Source: a virus. Taken from it: 19,527 bases of DNA. The stretch lies in the UHGV virus genome UHGV-0119084; one strand, written 5' to 3'. Both the position numbers and the translations under genes were made by a program. Shown piece after piece: positions 14,257-19,124 of the stretch (positions are counted from its first letter, which is position 1; each line of letters opens with the position of its first letter). The notes beneath the pieces are model-generated. The model did not search any database. It was not told the origin of the DNA and saw only the letters and a program-made list of their open reading frames with translations.

Positions 14257-14615
14257 ATACCTACAGTATCACATTACCCTGGCCTCCGAGCAATAATCGC
14301 TATTACCGCCATAATCGCGGGCGCACGCACGTCAGTGCAGAGGGGCAGGCATACCGCGATAACGTCGCCCGAATCATTAAAAGCGCAATGCTGGATATCG
14401 GCCTGGCTATGCCTGTGAAAATCCGCATTGAGTGCCACATGCCGGATCGCCGTCGCCGTGACCTGGATAATCTGCAAAAAGCCGCTTTTGACGCACTCAC
14501 TAAAGCAGGTTTCTGGCTGGATGATGCTCAGGTCGTTGATTACCGCGTTGTGAAGATGCCTGTTACCAAAGGTGGGAGGCTGGAACTGACCATCACCGAA
14601 ATGGGGAATGAATGA
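14253..14615 (+). CDS. rusA: RusA Holliday-junction resolvase
   Basis: 120-aa [102 protein letters not shown]...; matches E. coli RusA. Confidence 0.93.
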
Positions 14616-14752
14616 TGTTTGAGTTTAATATAGCAGAACTTCTTCGCCACCGCTGGGGGCGTCTGCGCTTATATCGTTTCCCCGGTTCTGTTTTGACCGA
14701 TTACCGAATACTGAAGAATTACGCCAAAACCCTGACAGGAGCAGGAGTATGA
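14612..14752 (+). CDS. ylcG: Small protein YlcG-like (46 aa)
   Basis: Hand translation [46 protein letters not shown]; overlaps the rusA stop. Confidence 0.5.
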
Positions 14753-14837
14753 AGTCAGAGATAACAATCAACTAATACTGTTTTATTGATTTTTGCTTGT
14801 AATTGGCGTTCTGGTCTGATTTTTGTGGAGTAAGTTG

Positions 14838-15221
14838 ATGCGTGATATTCAGATGGTTCTTGAGCGTTGGGGAGCGTGGGCGGCTAATAATCATGAAGAT
14901 GTGACCTGGTCGTCCATTGCCGCCGGTTTTAAGGGATTAATTCCTTCAAAAGTAAAATCTCGCCCGCAATGTTGTGACGATGACGCGATGATCATTTGCG
15001 GGTGCATGGCCCGTCTGAAAAAGAACAACAGCGATTTGCACGATTTATTAGTAGATTATTATGTAGTCGGTATGACATTCATGTCACTGGCAGGTAAGCA
15101 TTGCTGCTCTGATGGTTATATCGGGAAAAGGTTACAGAAGGCTGAGGGCATAATTGAAGGGATGTTAATGGCATTAGATATCCGGTTAGAGATGGATATC
15201 GTTGTTAATAACTCTAATTAA
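14838..15221 (+). CDS. quuD: Q-family late-gene antiterminator (DLP12 QuuD-like)
   Basis: [64 protein letters not shown]...; a GGAG lies about 8 nt upstream of the ATG at 14838. The ORF-track frame begins at an upstream TTG. Confidence 0.8.
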
Positions 15222-15248
15222 TACGCCAATTATTTACTAAAAGTTATT

Positions 15249-15280
15249 AAAAATGGGGCGTTGAAACGCCCCCAAAAATA
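15249..15280 (-). terminator. Intrinsic terminator of the porin gene nmpC (minus strand)
   Basis: GGGGCG-ttgaaa-CGCCCC hairpin; on the minus strand it is followed by AUUUUUAAU. Confidence 0.65.
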
Positions 15281-15360
15281 AAGGGTAATATATAACAGAA
15301 GGTTTGTATAGTTAGAAGCAAGGTTGTGCTTCTAAAGGAAGTGGCTTGAGGGAGCCACTT

Positions 15361-15399
15361 ATATGTTGGGGAGGCAAAGCCTCCCACAACATATCTTTT
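15361..15399 (+). terminator. Long imperfect hairpin (about 15 bp, one bulge) followed by CTTTT; candidate plus-strand terminator or structural element between the convergent quuD and nmpC
   Basis: ATATGTTGGGGAGGC-aaa-GCCTCCCACAACATAT, then CTTTTAG. Confidence 0.4.
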
Positions 15400-15409
15400 A
15401 GTAATCAAA

Positions 15410-16492
15410 TTAGAACTGGTAAACCATACCTACAGCAACGATATCATCGGTAGCAACGCCAGATGCTTTCGTGAAATCGCTCTTATCAATCAGGTTGATT
15501 TTGTAGTCAACAAAAGTGGACATATTTTTGTTGAAGTAATAGGTTGCACCTACATCAACATATTCAACCAGGTCCTGATCACCCCAAACACCCAAGTCTT
15601 TTCCTTTAGAATGCAGGTAAGCAACGGATGGACGCAGGCCGAAGTCGAACTGATATTGTGCAACAGCTTCGAAGTTTTGTGCTTTGTTGGCAATATGGTT
15701 ATTACCAAAAACAGTCATGTTCTGGGTTTCAGAATAGGTGGTGGCCAGATAGATGTTGTTCGCATCATATTTCAGACCAGCTGCCCATACTTCAGCATTT
15801 TGACCAGAAGCATTCAGACCGTTGTTACCGTAGATAACCTGATTATTAGTGCGATCAGATTTAGCATAGGTTGCACCTACACCGAATCCTTCATACTCAT
15901 AAGTAGTGGAGAAACCGAAACCATCACCATTAGCTTCAGTTACGTCAGTGCGGTCATTTTTACCCTGATACTGAGCAGCAAAGTTCAGACCATCAACCAG
16001 ACCAAAGAAGTCGTTGTTACGATAAGTTGCAACACCAGTGGTGCGACCAGTCATGAACACATCTGTTTGAGTCCAAGTGTCACCACCGAATTCTGGCAGG
16101 ACGTCAGTCCACGCACCGATGTCGTATGCTACACCGTAGTTACGGCCGTAATCGATGGAGCCGTAGTCACCGAATTTCAGGCCAGCGAAGGCAAGACGGG
16201 TTTTATCTTTGGAGGAACCTTGAGATTCAGCGCGGTTGCCTTTGAATTCATATTCCCACTGACCGAAACCAGTCAGTTGATCGTTGATTTGGGTTTCACC
16301 TTTGAAGCCAAGACGGGCATAAGTAGTATCACCATCATCTGCATCATTAGAGGAGAAGTAGTGCTTAGCATTAACTTTCCCGTACAGATCCAGCTTGTTA
16401 CTGTCTTTATTATAAATTTCAGCTGCCTGAGCAGACATCGCCATCAGTACTGATGCAGCTACAGCAGAAATTGCCACTGTTAATTTTTTCAT
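15410..16492 (-). CDS. nmpC: General outer-membrane porin (OmpC/OmpF/NmpC family), intact, with signal peptide
   Basis: 360-aa [50 protein letters not shown]... ending ...VAVGMVYQF (typical porin C-terminal Phe); matches NmpC/OmpD-type porins as recalled. Confidence 0.93.
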
Positions 16493-17080
16493 CGTGAGCC
16501 CTTTTTTTTGAACTATTATTAAAAAATGATGTCACTGCGCGATAAATATTCATCTAATCAATGTGATTATTTCAAGATGTAAGTTTTAGTTTCTCATTTA
16601 ATTTGTGAAGTAGATCTCTATTTTTATCTGAACTTTTTCTATCGAAACCTATTTATGGCTCTTATTTGAACAATAATAAACCTATTAGCTAATTTATATT
16701 AATGGCTGTTATTTATGGGGGGTCTATAATTCGATGGTTTAATTTAAATTAACTAAAAATAACGCCGGAAATTATTTATTGGTTATTTGTTGAGGTTTTC
16801 TTATGTATTTGTGGTGGTGTTTTGAACACTCGGTAGCATTCTCATAAATATCATTCAGTGGTTTACGTACGTAAAAAATTGGTTATGCTGTTAAGAGTGG
16901 TTACTTCGTCACACAGCTTAAACCCGCCGTCGAGCTGGTTTTTCCATTTTTTGAGTCTCGATATTAGCTGATAACTCAATACCTGAGTTATTCACTGACT
17001 CCGAGTCTGTTACGTTTCTGCTTTTTTGCGATACGTTGTATTCCCTCAATTTACACCCGCTTTGTCTGCGAGGTGGGGTT

Positions 17081-17296
17081 ATGAAATCCATGGATAAGTT
17101 AACAACGGGTGTCGCCTATGGCACCTCAGCAGGTAGTGCCGGTTACTGGTTTTTACAGCTGCTCGATAAAGTCACGCCCTCACAGTGGGCAGCAATAGGT
17201 GTGCTGGGTAGCCTGGTATTTGGCCTGCTGACGTACCTGACAAACCTTTATTTCAAGATTAAAGAAGATAAGCGCAAGGCTGCGAGAGGTGAATAA
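17081..17296 (+). CDS. essD: Phage-21-type pinholin (S21-like) with a dual-start motif (MKSM)
   Basis: [71 protein letters not shown] (71 aa); two TM segments; a GGTGGGG RBS-like run precedes the ATG. Confidence 0.88.
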
Positions 17297-17793
17297 TGCC
17301 TCCATCATTACGAAAAGCCGTTGCTGCTGCTATTGGTGGCGGAGCAATTGCTATAGCATCAGTGTTAATCACTGGCCCAAGTGGTAACGATGGTCTGGAA
17401 GGTGTCAGCTACATACCATACAAAGATATTGTTGGTGTATGGACTGTATGTCACGGGCATACAGGAAAAGACATCATGCTCGGTAAAACGTATACCAAAG
17501 CAGAATGCAAAGCCCTCCTGAATAAAGACCTTGCCACGGTCGCCAGACAAATTAACCCGTACATAAAAGTTGATATACCGGAAACAACGCGCGGCGCTCT
17601 TTACTCGTTCGTCTACAACGTGGGTGCTGGCAATTTCAGAACATCGACGCTTCTTCGCAAAATAAACCACGGTGATATCAAAGGCGCATGTGATCAGCTA
17701 CGGCGCTGGACATACGCTGGCGGTAATCAATGGAAAGGACTGATGACTCGCCGTGAGATTGAGCGTGAAGTCTGTTTGTGGGGGAAACAATGA
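17296..17793 (+). CDS. rrrD: SAR endolysin (T4-lysozyme-like muramidase, phage 21 R-type) with an N-terminal signal-anchor-release domain
   Basis: 165-aa [62 protein letters not shown]...; the Gly/Ala-rich N-terminal hydrophobic segment is typical of SAR endolysins. Confidence 0.9.
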
Positions 17794-18257: not shown

Positions 18258-18430
18258 TAGCGATAATTTTACTCATCATCCTTCACATCTGGCTCTGTAG
18301 ACAGGGTGGTGATCACTTCTGGAGTAAATCCAGATTAAACATCTCATTGCTGATGCTTGATATTGAGCATCTGGCGCGCAGTAAGGGGCTGCGTTGAGAT
18401 AAGAGCCAGTTCATTACAAATACCAGGATT

Positions 18431-18456
18431 TAGCCTCGCATTCGCGGGGCTTTTTA
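18431..18456 (+). terminator. Intrinsic terminator downstream of the lysis cassette
   Basis: AGCCTCGC-attc-GCGGGGCT hairpin (one G-U pair) followed by TTTTAT. Confidence 0.55.
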
Positions 18457-18599
18457 TATCTGAATTTCACAGCGCATCTCACGCGCATATTAACGAGAGC
18501 CTTTCAGTAAGCGAGCCTGAGAAATGCCGTTATAGGTGGCGACCTCTCTCGGGCGGCTTTTCTGTGAGACAGGCTCACTTTCTAAAAGGTAAAGACGCT

Positions 18600-19124
18600 A
18601 TGAATAATCATTCAGTTATTCCAGCCTTCGACTTCCGAGAAATGGTGCAAGCCAAAAACGGAGAGGTCGTTACCACATCCAGAAAAATTGCCAAGTACTT
18701 CGGCAAGCGACACGGTGATGTTCTCAGGAAAATCGAGCAGGTTAAGGCTGATTGCTCGCGTGAGTTTAGCCAACGCAATTTTGCGTCGGCTGATTATATC
18801 GATGAGCAGGGCAAGGTTCGCCCGATGTACAGCCTGACGAAAGATGGCTGGATCATGGTTGTGATGGGGTTCACCGGGAAAGCTGCTGCGGCAATCAAGG
18901 AGAGCTATATCGCAGCATTCAACTGGATGGCAGAACAACTGAGCCGCCGCATGGCAATTGGCGAAGAAATGCAGCACCGCTACGCCATCAAAGAAACACG
19001 CTCAAAGCTGAAAGGTACGATCGGCAGTCGGTTAATGAACGAACGGAAGAAAGAGAAGCGTGTCCTGGCTGTCGAGCATGAATACATCTTGCAGGTGACA
19101 CAGCCTGAACTGCTGATTAATTGA
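18600..19124 (+). CDS. rha: Rha-family phage regulatory protein
   Basis: MNNHSVIPAFDFREMVQAKNGEVVTTSRKIAKYFGKRHGDVLRKIEQVKADCSREF... is typical of the Rha N-terminal domain; start set at the ATG preceded by AAAAGG. The ORF-track frame starts 81 codons earlier with no support. Confidence 0.7.
   Translation: MNNHSVIPAFDFREMVQAKNGEVVTTSRKIAKYFGKRHGDVLRKIEQVKADCSREFSQRNFASADYIDEQGKVRPMYSLTKDGWIMVVMGFTGKAAAAIKESYIAAFNWMAEQLSRRMAIGEEMQHRYAIKETRSKLKGTIGSRLMNERKKEKRVLAVEHEYILQVTQPELLIN

Follow-up and report, generated by a model that had tools for sequence, protein, structure and literature searches.

It was previously known that lambdoid phages and prophages of Escherichia coli can carry a gene for an outer-membrane porin, named nmpC in the DLP12 (qsr') prophage of strain K-12 and lc in phage PA-2. 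In a PA-2 lysogen, Lc is made and OmpC, the receptor of PA-2, is lost. Castillo-Keller, Vuong and Misra are said to have placed, in 2006, a small RNA gene, ipeX, between the nmpC stop codon and a predicted terminator, and PA-2 reportedly has the same sequence after lc. Here, we examined the virus genome UHGV-0119084, a stretch of 19,527 nucleotides (nt) that is referred to as the window over its full length. As a preliminary description of this DNA had claimed, an intact porin gene lies on its minus strand, convergent with quuD (which encodes a Q-type late antiterminator) and followed on the other side by essD, the pinholin gene that begins the lysis cassette. NmpC and Lc represent the same gene, in the same position between quuD and essD and in the same orientation as the window porin, and the phage and prophage copies of this DNA were 92–98% identical to the window. 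We identify the region as the porin cassette (nmpC/lc) of a lambdoid prophage of the DLP12/PA-2 type. Its biology is already known, although a match between IpeX and the ribosome-binding sites of ompC and ompF, described below, may be one new point.

IpeX has been described as a 167-nt RNA of DLP12 that arises within the porin transcript and is processed from it (PMC12197685), and it lowers the expression of both ompC and ompF (PMC5069750). The 3' untranslated region (UTR) of the window porin has the same sequence as IpeX, the same place (from the stop codon to the terminator) and the same length. We consider it highly probable, with the pairing predicted below included in the account, that the window holds a self-contained, leftward porin/IpeX cassette situated between Q and the late promoter pR'. 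The proposed cassette measures ~1.6 kb and would comprise, in the leftward direction, a promoter region, the porin gene, a structured 3' UTR and a terminator. In a lysogen it would yield a general-diffusion porin, and the same transcript would yield the 3'-UTR RNA IpeX, lowering the synthesis of host OmpC and OmpF, such that porin and RNA together would remodel the cell surface. The loss of OmpC would block superinfection by PA-2. At the level of mechanism, an unpaired stretch of IpeX would pair over the Shine-Dalgarno sequence of the ompC leader, at the site used by the small RNA MicC, and in a shifted register the same stretch would pair with the Shine-Dalgarno sequence and start codon of ompF; both pairings would block translation initiation.

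Four strong hairpins had been reported between quuD and the porin gene, and the inverted repeats underlying all of them were confirmed (Table 1). The repeat at 15361-15394 had outer arms (11+11) that matched at 91% and inner arms (7+7) that matched perfectly, and that at 15255-15272 was a perfect 8+8 repeat. On both strands, the interval folded into far more stable structures than shuffled sequence did (z = −8.1 for the minus strand and −7.4 for the plus strand), and 0 of 200 shuffles folded as well. The preliminary description had further claimed that at least one hairpin is the porin terminator, and this held: 15255-15272 on the minus strand passed a scan for intrinsic terminators (GGGGCGTTTCAACGCCCC + ATTTTTAATA; stem GGGGCGUUUCAACGCCCC followed by AUUUUUAAUA). 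It was the sole hairpin to do so, and the other three failed the criterion of a GC-rich stem plus U-tract on both strands, which contradicts the proposal that the hairpins are separate terminators with one facing the plus strand. Judged by its sequence, the hairpin cluster is the body of IpeX, with three predicted structural stem-loops and the terminator as a fourth.

Compared to the corresponding intervals of K-12 DLP12 and PA-2, the window UTR showed 95–96% identity. The UTR was found in 2510 of 5426 E. coli genomes (~46%), nearly always at ≥90% identity and with a median of one copy per genome, and it is therefore not a dispersed repeat. Besides the terminator, a weak but consistent signal suggests that the minus strand is the transcribed strand of the UTR: A-to-G changes in the stem of hairpin 3 left G-U pairs on the minus strand only, and substitutions compatible with G-U pairing alone occupied 14 cells across the UTR variants on the minus strand vs 7 on the plus strand. 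A scan of 14500-17500 against Rfam, which is without any IpeX family, gave no match at E values up to 1, and ipeX was unannotated in the RefSeq K-12 record that was used.

Between hairpin 3 and the terminator, IpeX contains a near-invariant unpaired stretch with an opening energy of 1.6 kcal/mol. This was the best-conserved part of the UTR, above the stems, and it was unchanged in 23 of 26 distinct variants. Single C-to-U changes in the E. albertii variant and in one other (L056) retained the affected pair as G-U, and a single U-to-G change in a third variant (L032) broke one pair. In this stretch, AACCUUCUGUUAUAU is complementary to AUAUAACAGAGGGUU of the K-12 ompC leader (−21 to −7), across the Shine-Dalgarno sequence, with 14 Watson-Crick pairs and 1 G-U pair, and CCUUUAUUU is complementary over 9 bp to AAAUAAAGG (−31 to −23). 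A contiguous run of 15 bp with the ompC leader was reached in 0.1% of 1000 shuffles. The leader itself was ≥99% identical in 5368 of 5371 E. coli genomes. With ompF, the duplex extended from −14 to +9 in three blocks of 10, 5 and 4 bp (UAUUACCCUU/GAGGGUAAUA, GUUAU/AUAAU and CUUC/GAAG).

Pairing was scored by seed-only duplexes, co-folding and opening energies (full-length duplex folding gave meaningless long duplexes), and in determining background energies the porin leaders were scored apart from other control windows. Co-folding of full-length IpeX with each leader retained all four hairpins and added the intermolecular duplex, with gains of −21.0 kcal/mol for ompC, −20.6 for ompF, −10.3 for ompA and −9.9 for the porin's own leader. 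OmpA was reportedly unaffected by IpeX in the 2006 work of Castillo-Keller and colleagues. The hybrid energy of IpeX with ompC was −24.8 kcal/mol vs −26.5 kcal/mol for the validated MicC-ompC duplex, and that of IpeX with ompF (−17.4 kcal/mol) was weaker than that of MicF with ompF (−27.4 kcal/mol). Energies of −26 kcal/mol or lower were reached in 8 of 5344 control windows of enterobacterial DNA, and the top scorers among 54 porin leaders were ompC-type and ompF-type leaders.

The small RNAs MicC and MicF are the closest described counterparts of this predicted seed. Two blocks, GUUAUAU and CCUUUAUU, are common to IpeX and the 5' end of MicC (they were read directly from the sequences, a MAFFT alignment having fallen in the wrong register), and both RNAs cover the same site in the ompC leader, in the case of IpeX by prediction. 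Likewise, the UUAUUACC core of MicF resembles the AUUACCC core of IpeX, and the same Shine-Dalgarno region of ompF is the predicted target. MicC and MicF are each encoded by a gene of their own, divergent to porin genes, and have their seeds at the 5' end, whereas IpeX occupies a 3' UTR and has an internal predicted seed between hairpins. This seed would unite the two specificities and lengthen the duplex with ompC so that it spans the Shine-Dalgarno sequence. We tentatively suggest, at slightly less than even weight, that IpeX is a conventional antisense RNA with a composite seed, MicC-like and MicF-like, and that the host seeds were copied into the porin 3' UTR. Pairing as the mechanism of repression is put forward here as a prediction. 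In the 2006 abstract, Hfq is said to have been required for the effect on ompF and not for that on ompC, and a long ompC duplex together with a short ompF duplex would fit this dependence. The predicted duplexes would offer a simple mechanism for a small RNA whose action reviews call unexplained. Levels of OmpC and OmpF influence antibiotic entry and phage adsorption, and a defined IpeX seed would allow clinical porin-loss phenotypes to be linked to prophage content.

Several points weigh against identifying the UTR with IpeX and its unpaired stretch with an antisense seed. The hairpins showed minimal covariation because the UTR is 91–100% conserved: across the 26 distinct variants, 98.1% of cells were paired vs 97.9% in shuffles, and there was one compensatory change, from C-G to U-A in the loop-closing pair of the 15361-15394 hairpin of E. 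albertii. The exact ends of IpeX depend on the 167-nt figure of a review and on what the 2006 abstract is said to report. The energy of the ompF duplex was matched by 6.8% of random windows and by 14.9% of windows with a Shine-Dalgarno sequence and ATG. Finally, reviews state that IpeX acts not, or not only, by base-pairing (PMC3617542, PMC12197685), and the literature holds that it does not pair with ompC or ompF, in contrast to the 15+9 bp and 10+5+4 bp matches observed here. The longest exact match was 10 nt and the default blastn word is 11, with which nothing is found; the earlier negative result for complementarity may have arisen because the exact run is shorter than this word.

It could be argued from the same denial of base-pairing (PMC3617542) that the hairpins only stabilise the 3' end of the porin mRNA, and that the complementarity to ompC and ompF is a functionless relic of an inverted porin-leader fragment. 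We regard this as unlikely, since published genetics assign the repression of OmpC and OmpF to ipeX RNA alone (PMC12197685, PMC5069750, PMC3617542). Stacked stable hairpins ahead of a terminator are indeed typical of mRNA stabilisers, and the plus strand of 15276-15304 reads as a copy of the ompC leader, as would fit a rearrangement, but the unpaired stretch is more conserved than the stems and two of its three substitutions keep G-U pairing. Similarly, one survey places ipeX among small RNAs with palindromes resembling repetitive extragenic palindromic (REP) elements, whereas the UTR, at a median of one copy per genome, does not behave as a dispersed repeat.

The porin/IpeX cassette was also compared to the late-transcription region of other lambdoid phages. 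The preliminary description had expected late transcription from the Q side to run head-on into the porin gene. Window positions 16861-16943 were 76–77% identical to the stretch directly after Q in ~290 records of Shiga toxin (Stx) phages, where the counterpart is annotated as pR' plus terminator. Correspondingly, 16862-16950 was homologous to the block of pR', leader and first hairpin that directly follows Q in phages H-19B and 933W (window GGTTTACGTACGTAAAAAATTGGTTATGCTGTTAAGAGTGGTTAC...AAACCCGCCGTCGAGCTGGTTTTT; H-19B AGTTTACGATCGTAAAAATCTGCATATCATGATAAGAGTGGTTAC...AACCCGCCGATGCGCGGGTTTTTTT). The block thus resembles the start of the Stx-phage pR' transcript; short pR'-tR' leader RNAs of lambdoid prophages include StxS and lambda 6S RNA. 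In the window, the porin cassette separates this block from the Q stop codon by 1.64 kb, in place of the canonical adjacency of Q and pR', and the hairpin cluster is not such a leader. The pR' block was unchanged across five cassette-bearing loci, among them K-12, PA-2, phage 4A7 and E. coli SHP24, even where the late region downstream differed. Since the pR' homologue lies beyond the porin gene and is directed away from it, the cassette sits between Q and the promoter of Q.

We infer from this homology that pR' at 16862 would be the active late promoter. Late transcription probably starts near 16896 and proceeds rightward into essD, in which case the head-on encounter is probably wrong and convergence on the porin gene would be limited to early pR transcripts that continue beyond Q. 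Porin expression and late transcription would thus be divergent, not convergent, and this layout changes what to test about interference between them. In E. coli SHP24 (L169, 2117-5190), the Q-porin-pR' block was joined not to essD but to a Stx-phage-like late region with a hypothetical gene and a DNA methyltransferase gene; hence Q, cassette and pR' travel as a single module.

The position of pR' also bears on whether the hairpins form a bank of terminators facing both strands that insulates the porin gene from Q-driven late transcription on the quuD side, which we judge improbable. All four hairpins are strong, and CTTTT (CTTTTT in K-12) follows the one at 15361-15394 when the plus strand is read, an arrangement that could stop unmodified early transcription after Q; however, the one hairpin that passed the terminator scan faces the minus strand, the pR' homologue lies beyond the porin gene and points away, and the whole hairpin set accompanies the porin in E. 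albertii, where Q is lacking. In lambda, moreover, polymerase modified by Q or N reads through intrinsic terminators. That the quuD-porin interval is a plus-strand late leader RNA of the lambda 6S/StxS kind, in which pR' would directly follow Q as it does in lambda, 933W and H-19B, seems very improbable despite the good folding of the plus strand (z = −7.4) and a sequence, ATATAACAG, common to the interval and the post-Q region of phage ev087, for no plus-strand promoter-like site was called in 15222-15409, the spacer of the best candidate (TTGAAA/TAATAT) measures 19 bp, the pR' homologue is elsewhere, the interval is retained in a context without Q, and the sharing of ATATAACAG is explained by the ompC-leader-like sequence. 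A pR' inside this interval, for which the same shared sequence had made a candidate, was rejected on account of the homologue at 16862 and the similarity to the ompC leader.

Termination downstream of the pR' homologue was less clear and counts against its assignment, which comes from Stx-phage homology. The first downstream hairpin, a candidate tR', is weakened in the window: it reads CCCGC...GCTGG, with a C-U mismatch, in the window and PA-2, and forms a perfect stem, CCCGC...GCGGG, in K-12, phage 4A7 and SHP24. In Stx phages, differential RNA sequencing (dRNA-seq) placed the PR' start site 258 nt upstream of tR', and the main tR' at that distance is the second terminator (PMC7547250). The same spacing separates the annotated pR' of 933W from its second annotated terminator, which had no counterpart in the window alignment, and no strong tR' was identified between the pR' homologue and essD. 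The basal level of read-through to the lysis genes could differ between the GCTGG and GCGGG forms. Between the pR' leader and essD, K-12 (L001) lacks 17 nt (the CTGCTTTTTTGCGATA region, at window 17010-17030) that are present in the window, PA-2 and 4A7.

The boundaries of the porin/IpeX cassette could be located on both sides. DNA homology of quuD to other Q genes stopped at ~15197 (megablast query position 398), and the last codons of QuuD (IVVNNSN*) are unlike the end of H-19B Q and belong to the inserted cassette, which starts at ~15198 and ends on the right at a point from 16800 to 16860. In the E. albertii type strain, the porin gene, ~300 nt upstream of it and the UTR through the terminator adjoin the chromosomal genes ycgN/ycgM; Q is absent, homology to the window ends right past the terminator, and a bor-like remnant lies on the other side. 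Because E. albertii keeps the UTR without Q, the hairpins were assigned to the porin unit and not to Q. This locus (NBRC 107761; L105, 1364-2680), which is without lysis genes and has only a bor-like open reading frame (ORF) upstream, appears to be a domesticated remnant that has retained exactly the porin/IpeX unit. The UTR sequence was absent from chromosomal ompD-type porin genes of Salmonella, Citrobacter and Enterobacter, whose proteins are 76–80% identical to the window porin.

By these features of sequence and context, the porin cassette is probably a moron, with a predicted terminator of its own and edges that interrupt contiguous phage sequence, in keeping with the earlier proposal that the porin is phage-borne cargo for lysogenic conversion. 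Other lambdoid morons (bor and lom of lambda, stx and the Blc gene of ev087) are likewise autonomous cargo genes with a terminator near Q or the late promoter. The porin cassette differs in having a regulatory RNA in its 3' UTR, so that its protein would replace the host porins that its RNA would remove. Different reverse-oriented genes were seen at a similar spot in two other phages. In ev087 (L004, 3073-3597), a leftward Blc lipocalin gene lies just past Q and a plus-strand terminator, and in PhiR55_1 (L178, 690-1136), a leftward hypothetical ORF of 148 aa lies between Q and the pR' block; the spot looks like a recurrent insertion site for such morons. In E. coli JB2 (L167, 2501-3700), the porin gene is deleted, an IS5-like element lies at ~window 15285, inside the IpeX seed region, and the UTR is reduced to its terminator-proximal 64 nt. 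This 64-nt partial match was considered as a module boundary and rejected, as it represents an IS5-associated deletion.

The porin ORF covered the Pfam Porin_1 profile (PF00267) in full (1-337 of 337, E = 3e-152), and solved chains of OmpC, OmpK36, PhoE and OmpF matched residues 24-360 with E values of 1e-115 to 1e-136. Its C-terminus (...MVYQF) carries the terminal Phe that is a signature of outer-membrane assembly. Compared to Lc of PA-2, the protein was 91% identical and 5 residues shorter, with substitutions clustered near indels at residues 181-187 and 216-233. The first 60 residues are the same in both, and the first 23 are annotated in the PA-2 record (J02580) as the Lc signal peptide, which implies the same signal peptide for the window porin. 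On this evidence the ORF is a predicted member of the general bacterial porins, in the OmpC/OmpF/PhoE/NmpC group. In K-12, the DLP12 copy of nmpC is interrupted by IS5 after codon 346, whereas the window copy is unbroken. The insertion separates the K-12 UTR from the porin promoter, and IpeX may therefore not be produced in that strain. In RefSeq, the prophage porin carries the label "ompC: porin OmpC" from the Prokaryotic Genome Annotation Pipeline (PGAP) in the complete genomes listed (H1-H25). This label is a naming artefact, and automated tallies of ompC copy number or ompC loss could be misled by it.

Upstream of the porin gene, the E. albertii copy was conserved for ~300 nt from the ATG, and the sole promoter-like site called in this region was weak (16702..16673). 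The predicted CRP site of the PA-2 record is present here as an identical sequence (Table 1). A second CRP site in the old PA-2 GenBank record, AGTGGTTACTTCGTCACACAG, corresponds to window 16896-16916, which is the initial transcribed region of the pR' homologue and where 933W has qut annotated; this annotation probably reflects a sequence guess of 1986 and not a porin regulatory site.

Table 1. Coordinates of the features discussed, given as positions in the window.
Feature	Position	Strand	Details
quuD, Q-type late antiterminator	14838-15221	+	127 aa; Pfam PF06530 (Phage_antitermQ), E = 5e-53
Porin 3' UTR, identified with IpeX	15243-15409	minus	~165-167 nt, stop codon to U-tract
Predicted intrinsic terminator of porin/IpeX transcript	15245-15272	minus	stem 15255-15272, then AUUUUUAAUA
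Near-invariant unpaired stretch, proposed antisense seed	15276-15304	minus	RNA nt 106-134, AACCUUCUGUUAUAU-AUUAC-CCUUUAUUU
IpeX hairpin 3 (RNA order)	15312-15335	minus	9 bp; 9+9 perfect repeat
IpeX hairpin 2	15339-15360	minus	8 bp; 8+8 perfect repeat
IpeX hairpin 1	15361-15394	minus	15 bp, one bulged U, loop UUU
nmpC/lc-type general porin gene	15410-16492	minus	intact, 360 aa; signal peptide encoded by 16424-16492
Porin 5' UTR and promoter region	16493-16800	minus	conserved part stops near 16800
Predicted CRP site, ATTTGTGAAGTAGATCTCTAT	16601-16621		misc_binding feature of J02580; identical sequence in window
pR' homologue	16862-16889	+	TTTACG, 16 nt, TATGCT; predicted start near 16896
Candidate tR'	16923-16943	+	first hairpin + T5 after pR'; stem weakened by G-to-T change
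essD, S21-type pinholin	17081-17296	+	first gene of lysis cassette; Pfam PF04971 (Phage_holin_2_1)
rrrD, lysozyme	17296-17793		PF00959; followed by spanin genes rzpD/rzoD; names as in 434B and K-12 annotation

The genes on either side of the porin/IpeX cassette were those of the cryptic K-12 prophage DLP12, in the same order (ybcM, ybcN, ninE, ybcO, rusA, ylcG, quuD, porin, essD, rrrD, rzpD). QuuD was 82% identical to Q of H-19B and 78% identical to Q of 933W. A query of 1801 nt (the end of quuD, the porin gene and its upstream region) was found at ≥80% coverage in 2466 of 5426 complete E. coli genomes, and a 2.5-kb query from quuD through essD was found at the same coverage in at least 36 phage records. 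The phage records with the module included PA-2 (lc, J02580) and 434B, a derivative of phage 434 with an acquired K-12 region. A search of IMG/VR for the porin returned only copies that were 99–100% identical, which added no diversity. In a near-identical relative, strain 442/2, the module resides within a complete lambdoid prophage that also has genes for head and tail.

Downstream of rzpD, at 18357-19124, the window contains an ORF for a regulator of the Rha family (Pfam Phage_pRha, E = 4e-28), the true start of which probably lies downstream of the listed TTG. At the place of this ORF, K-12 and strain 442/2 carry bor/iss on the opposite strand.

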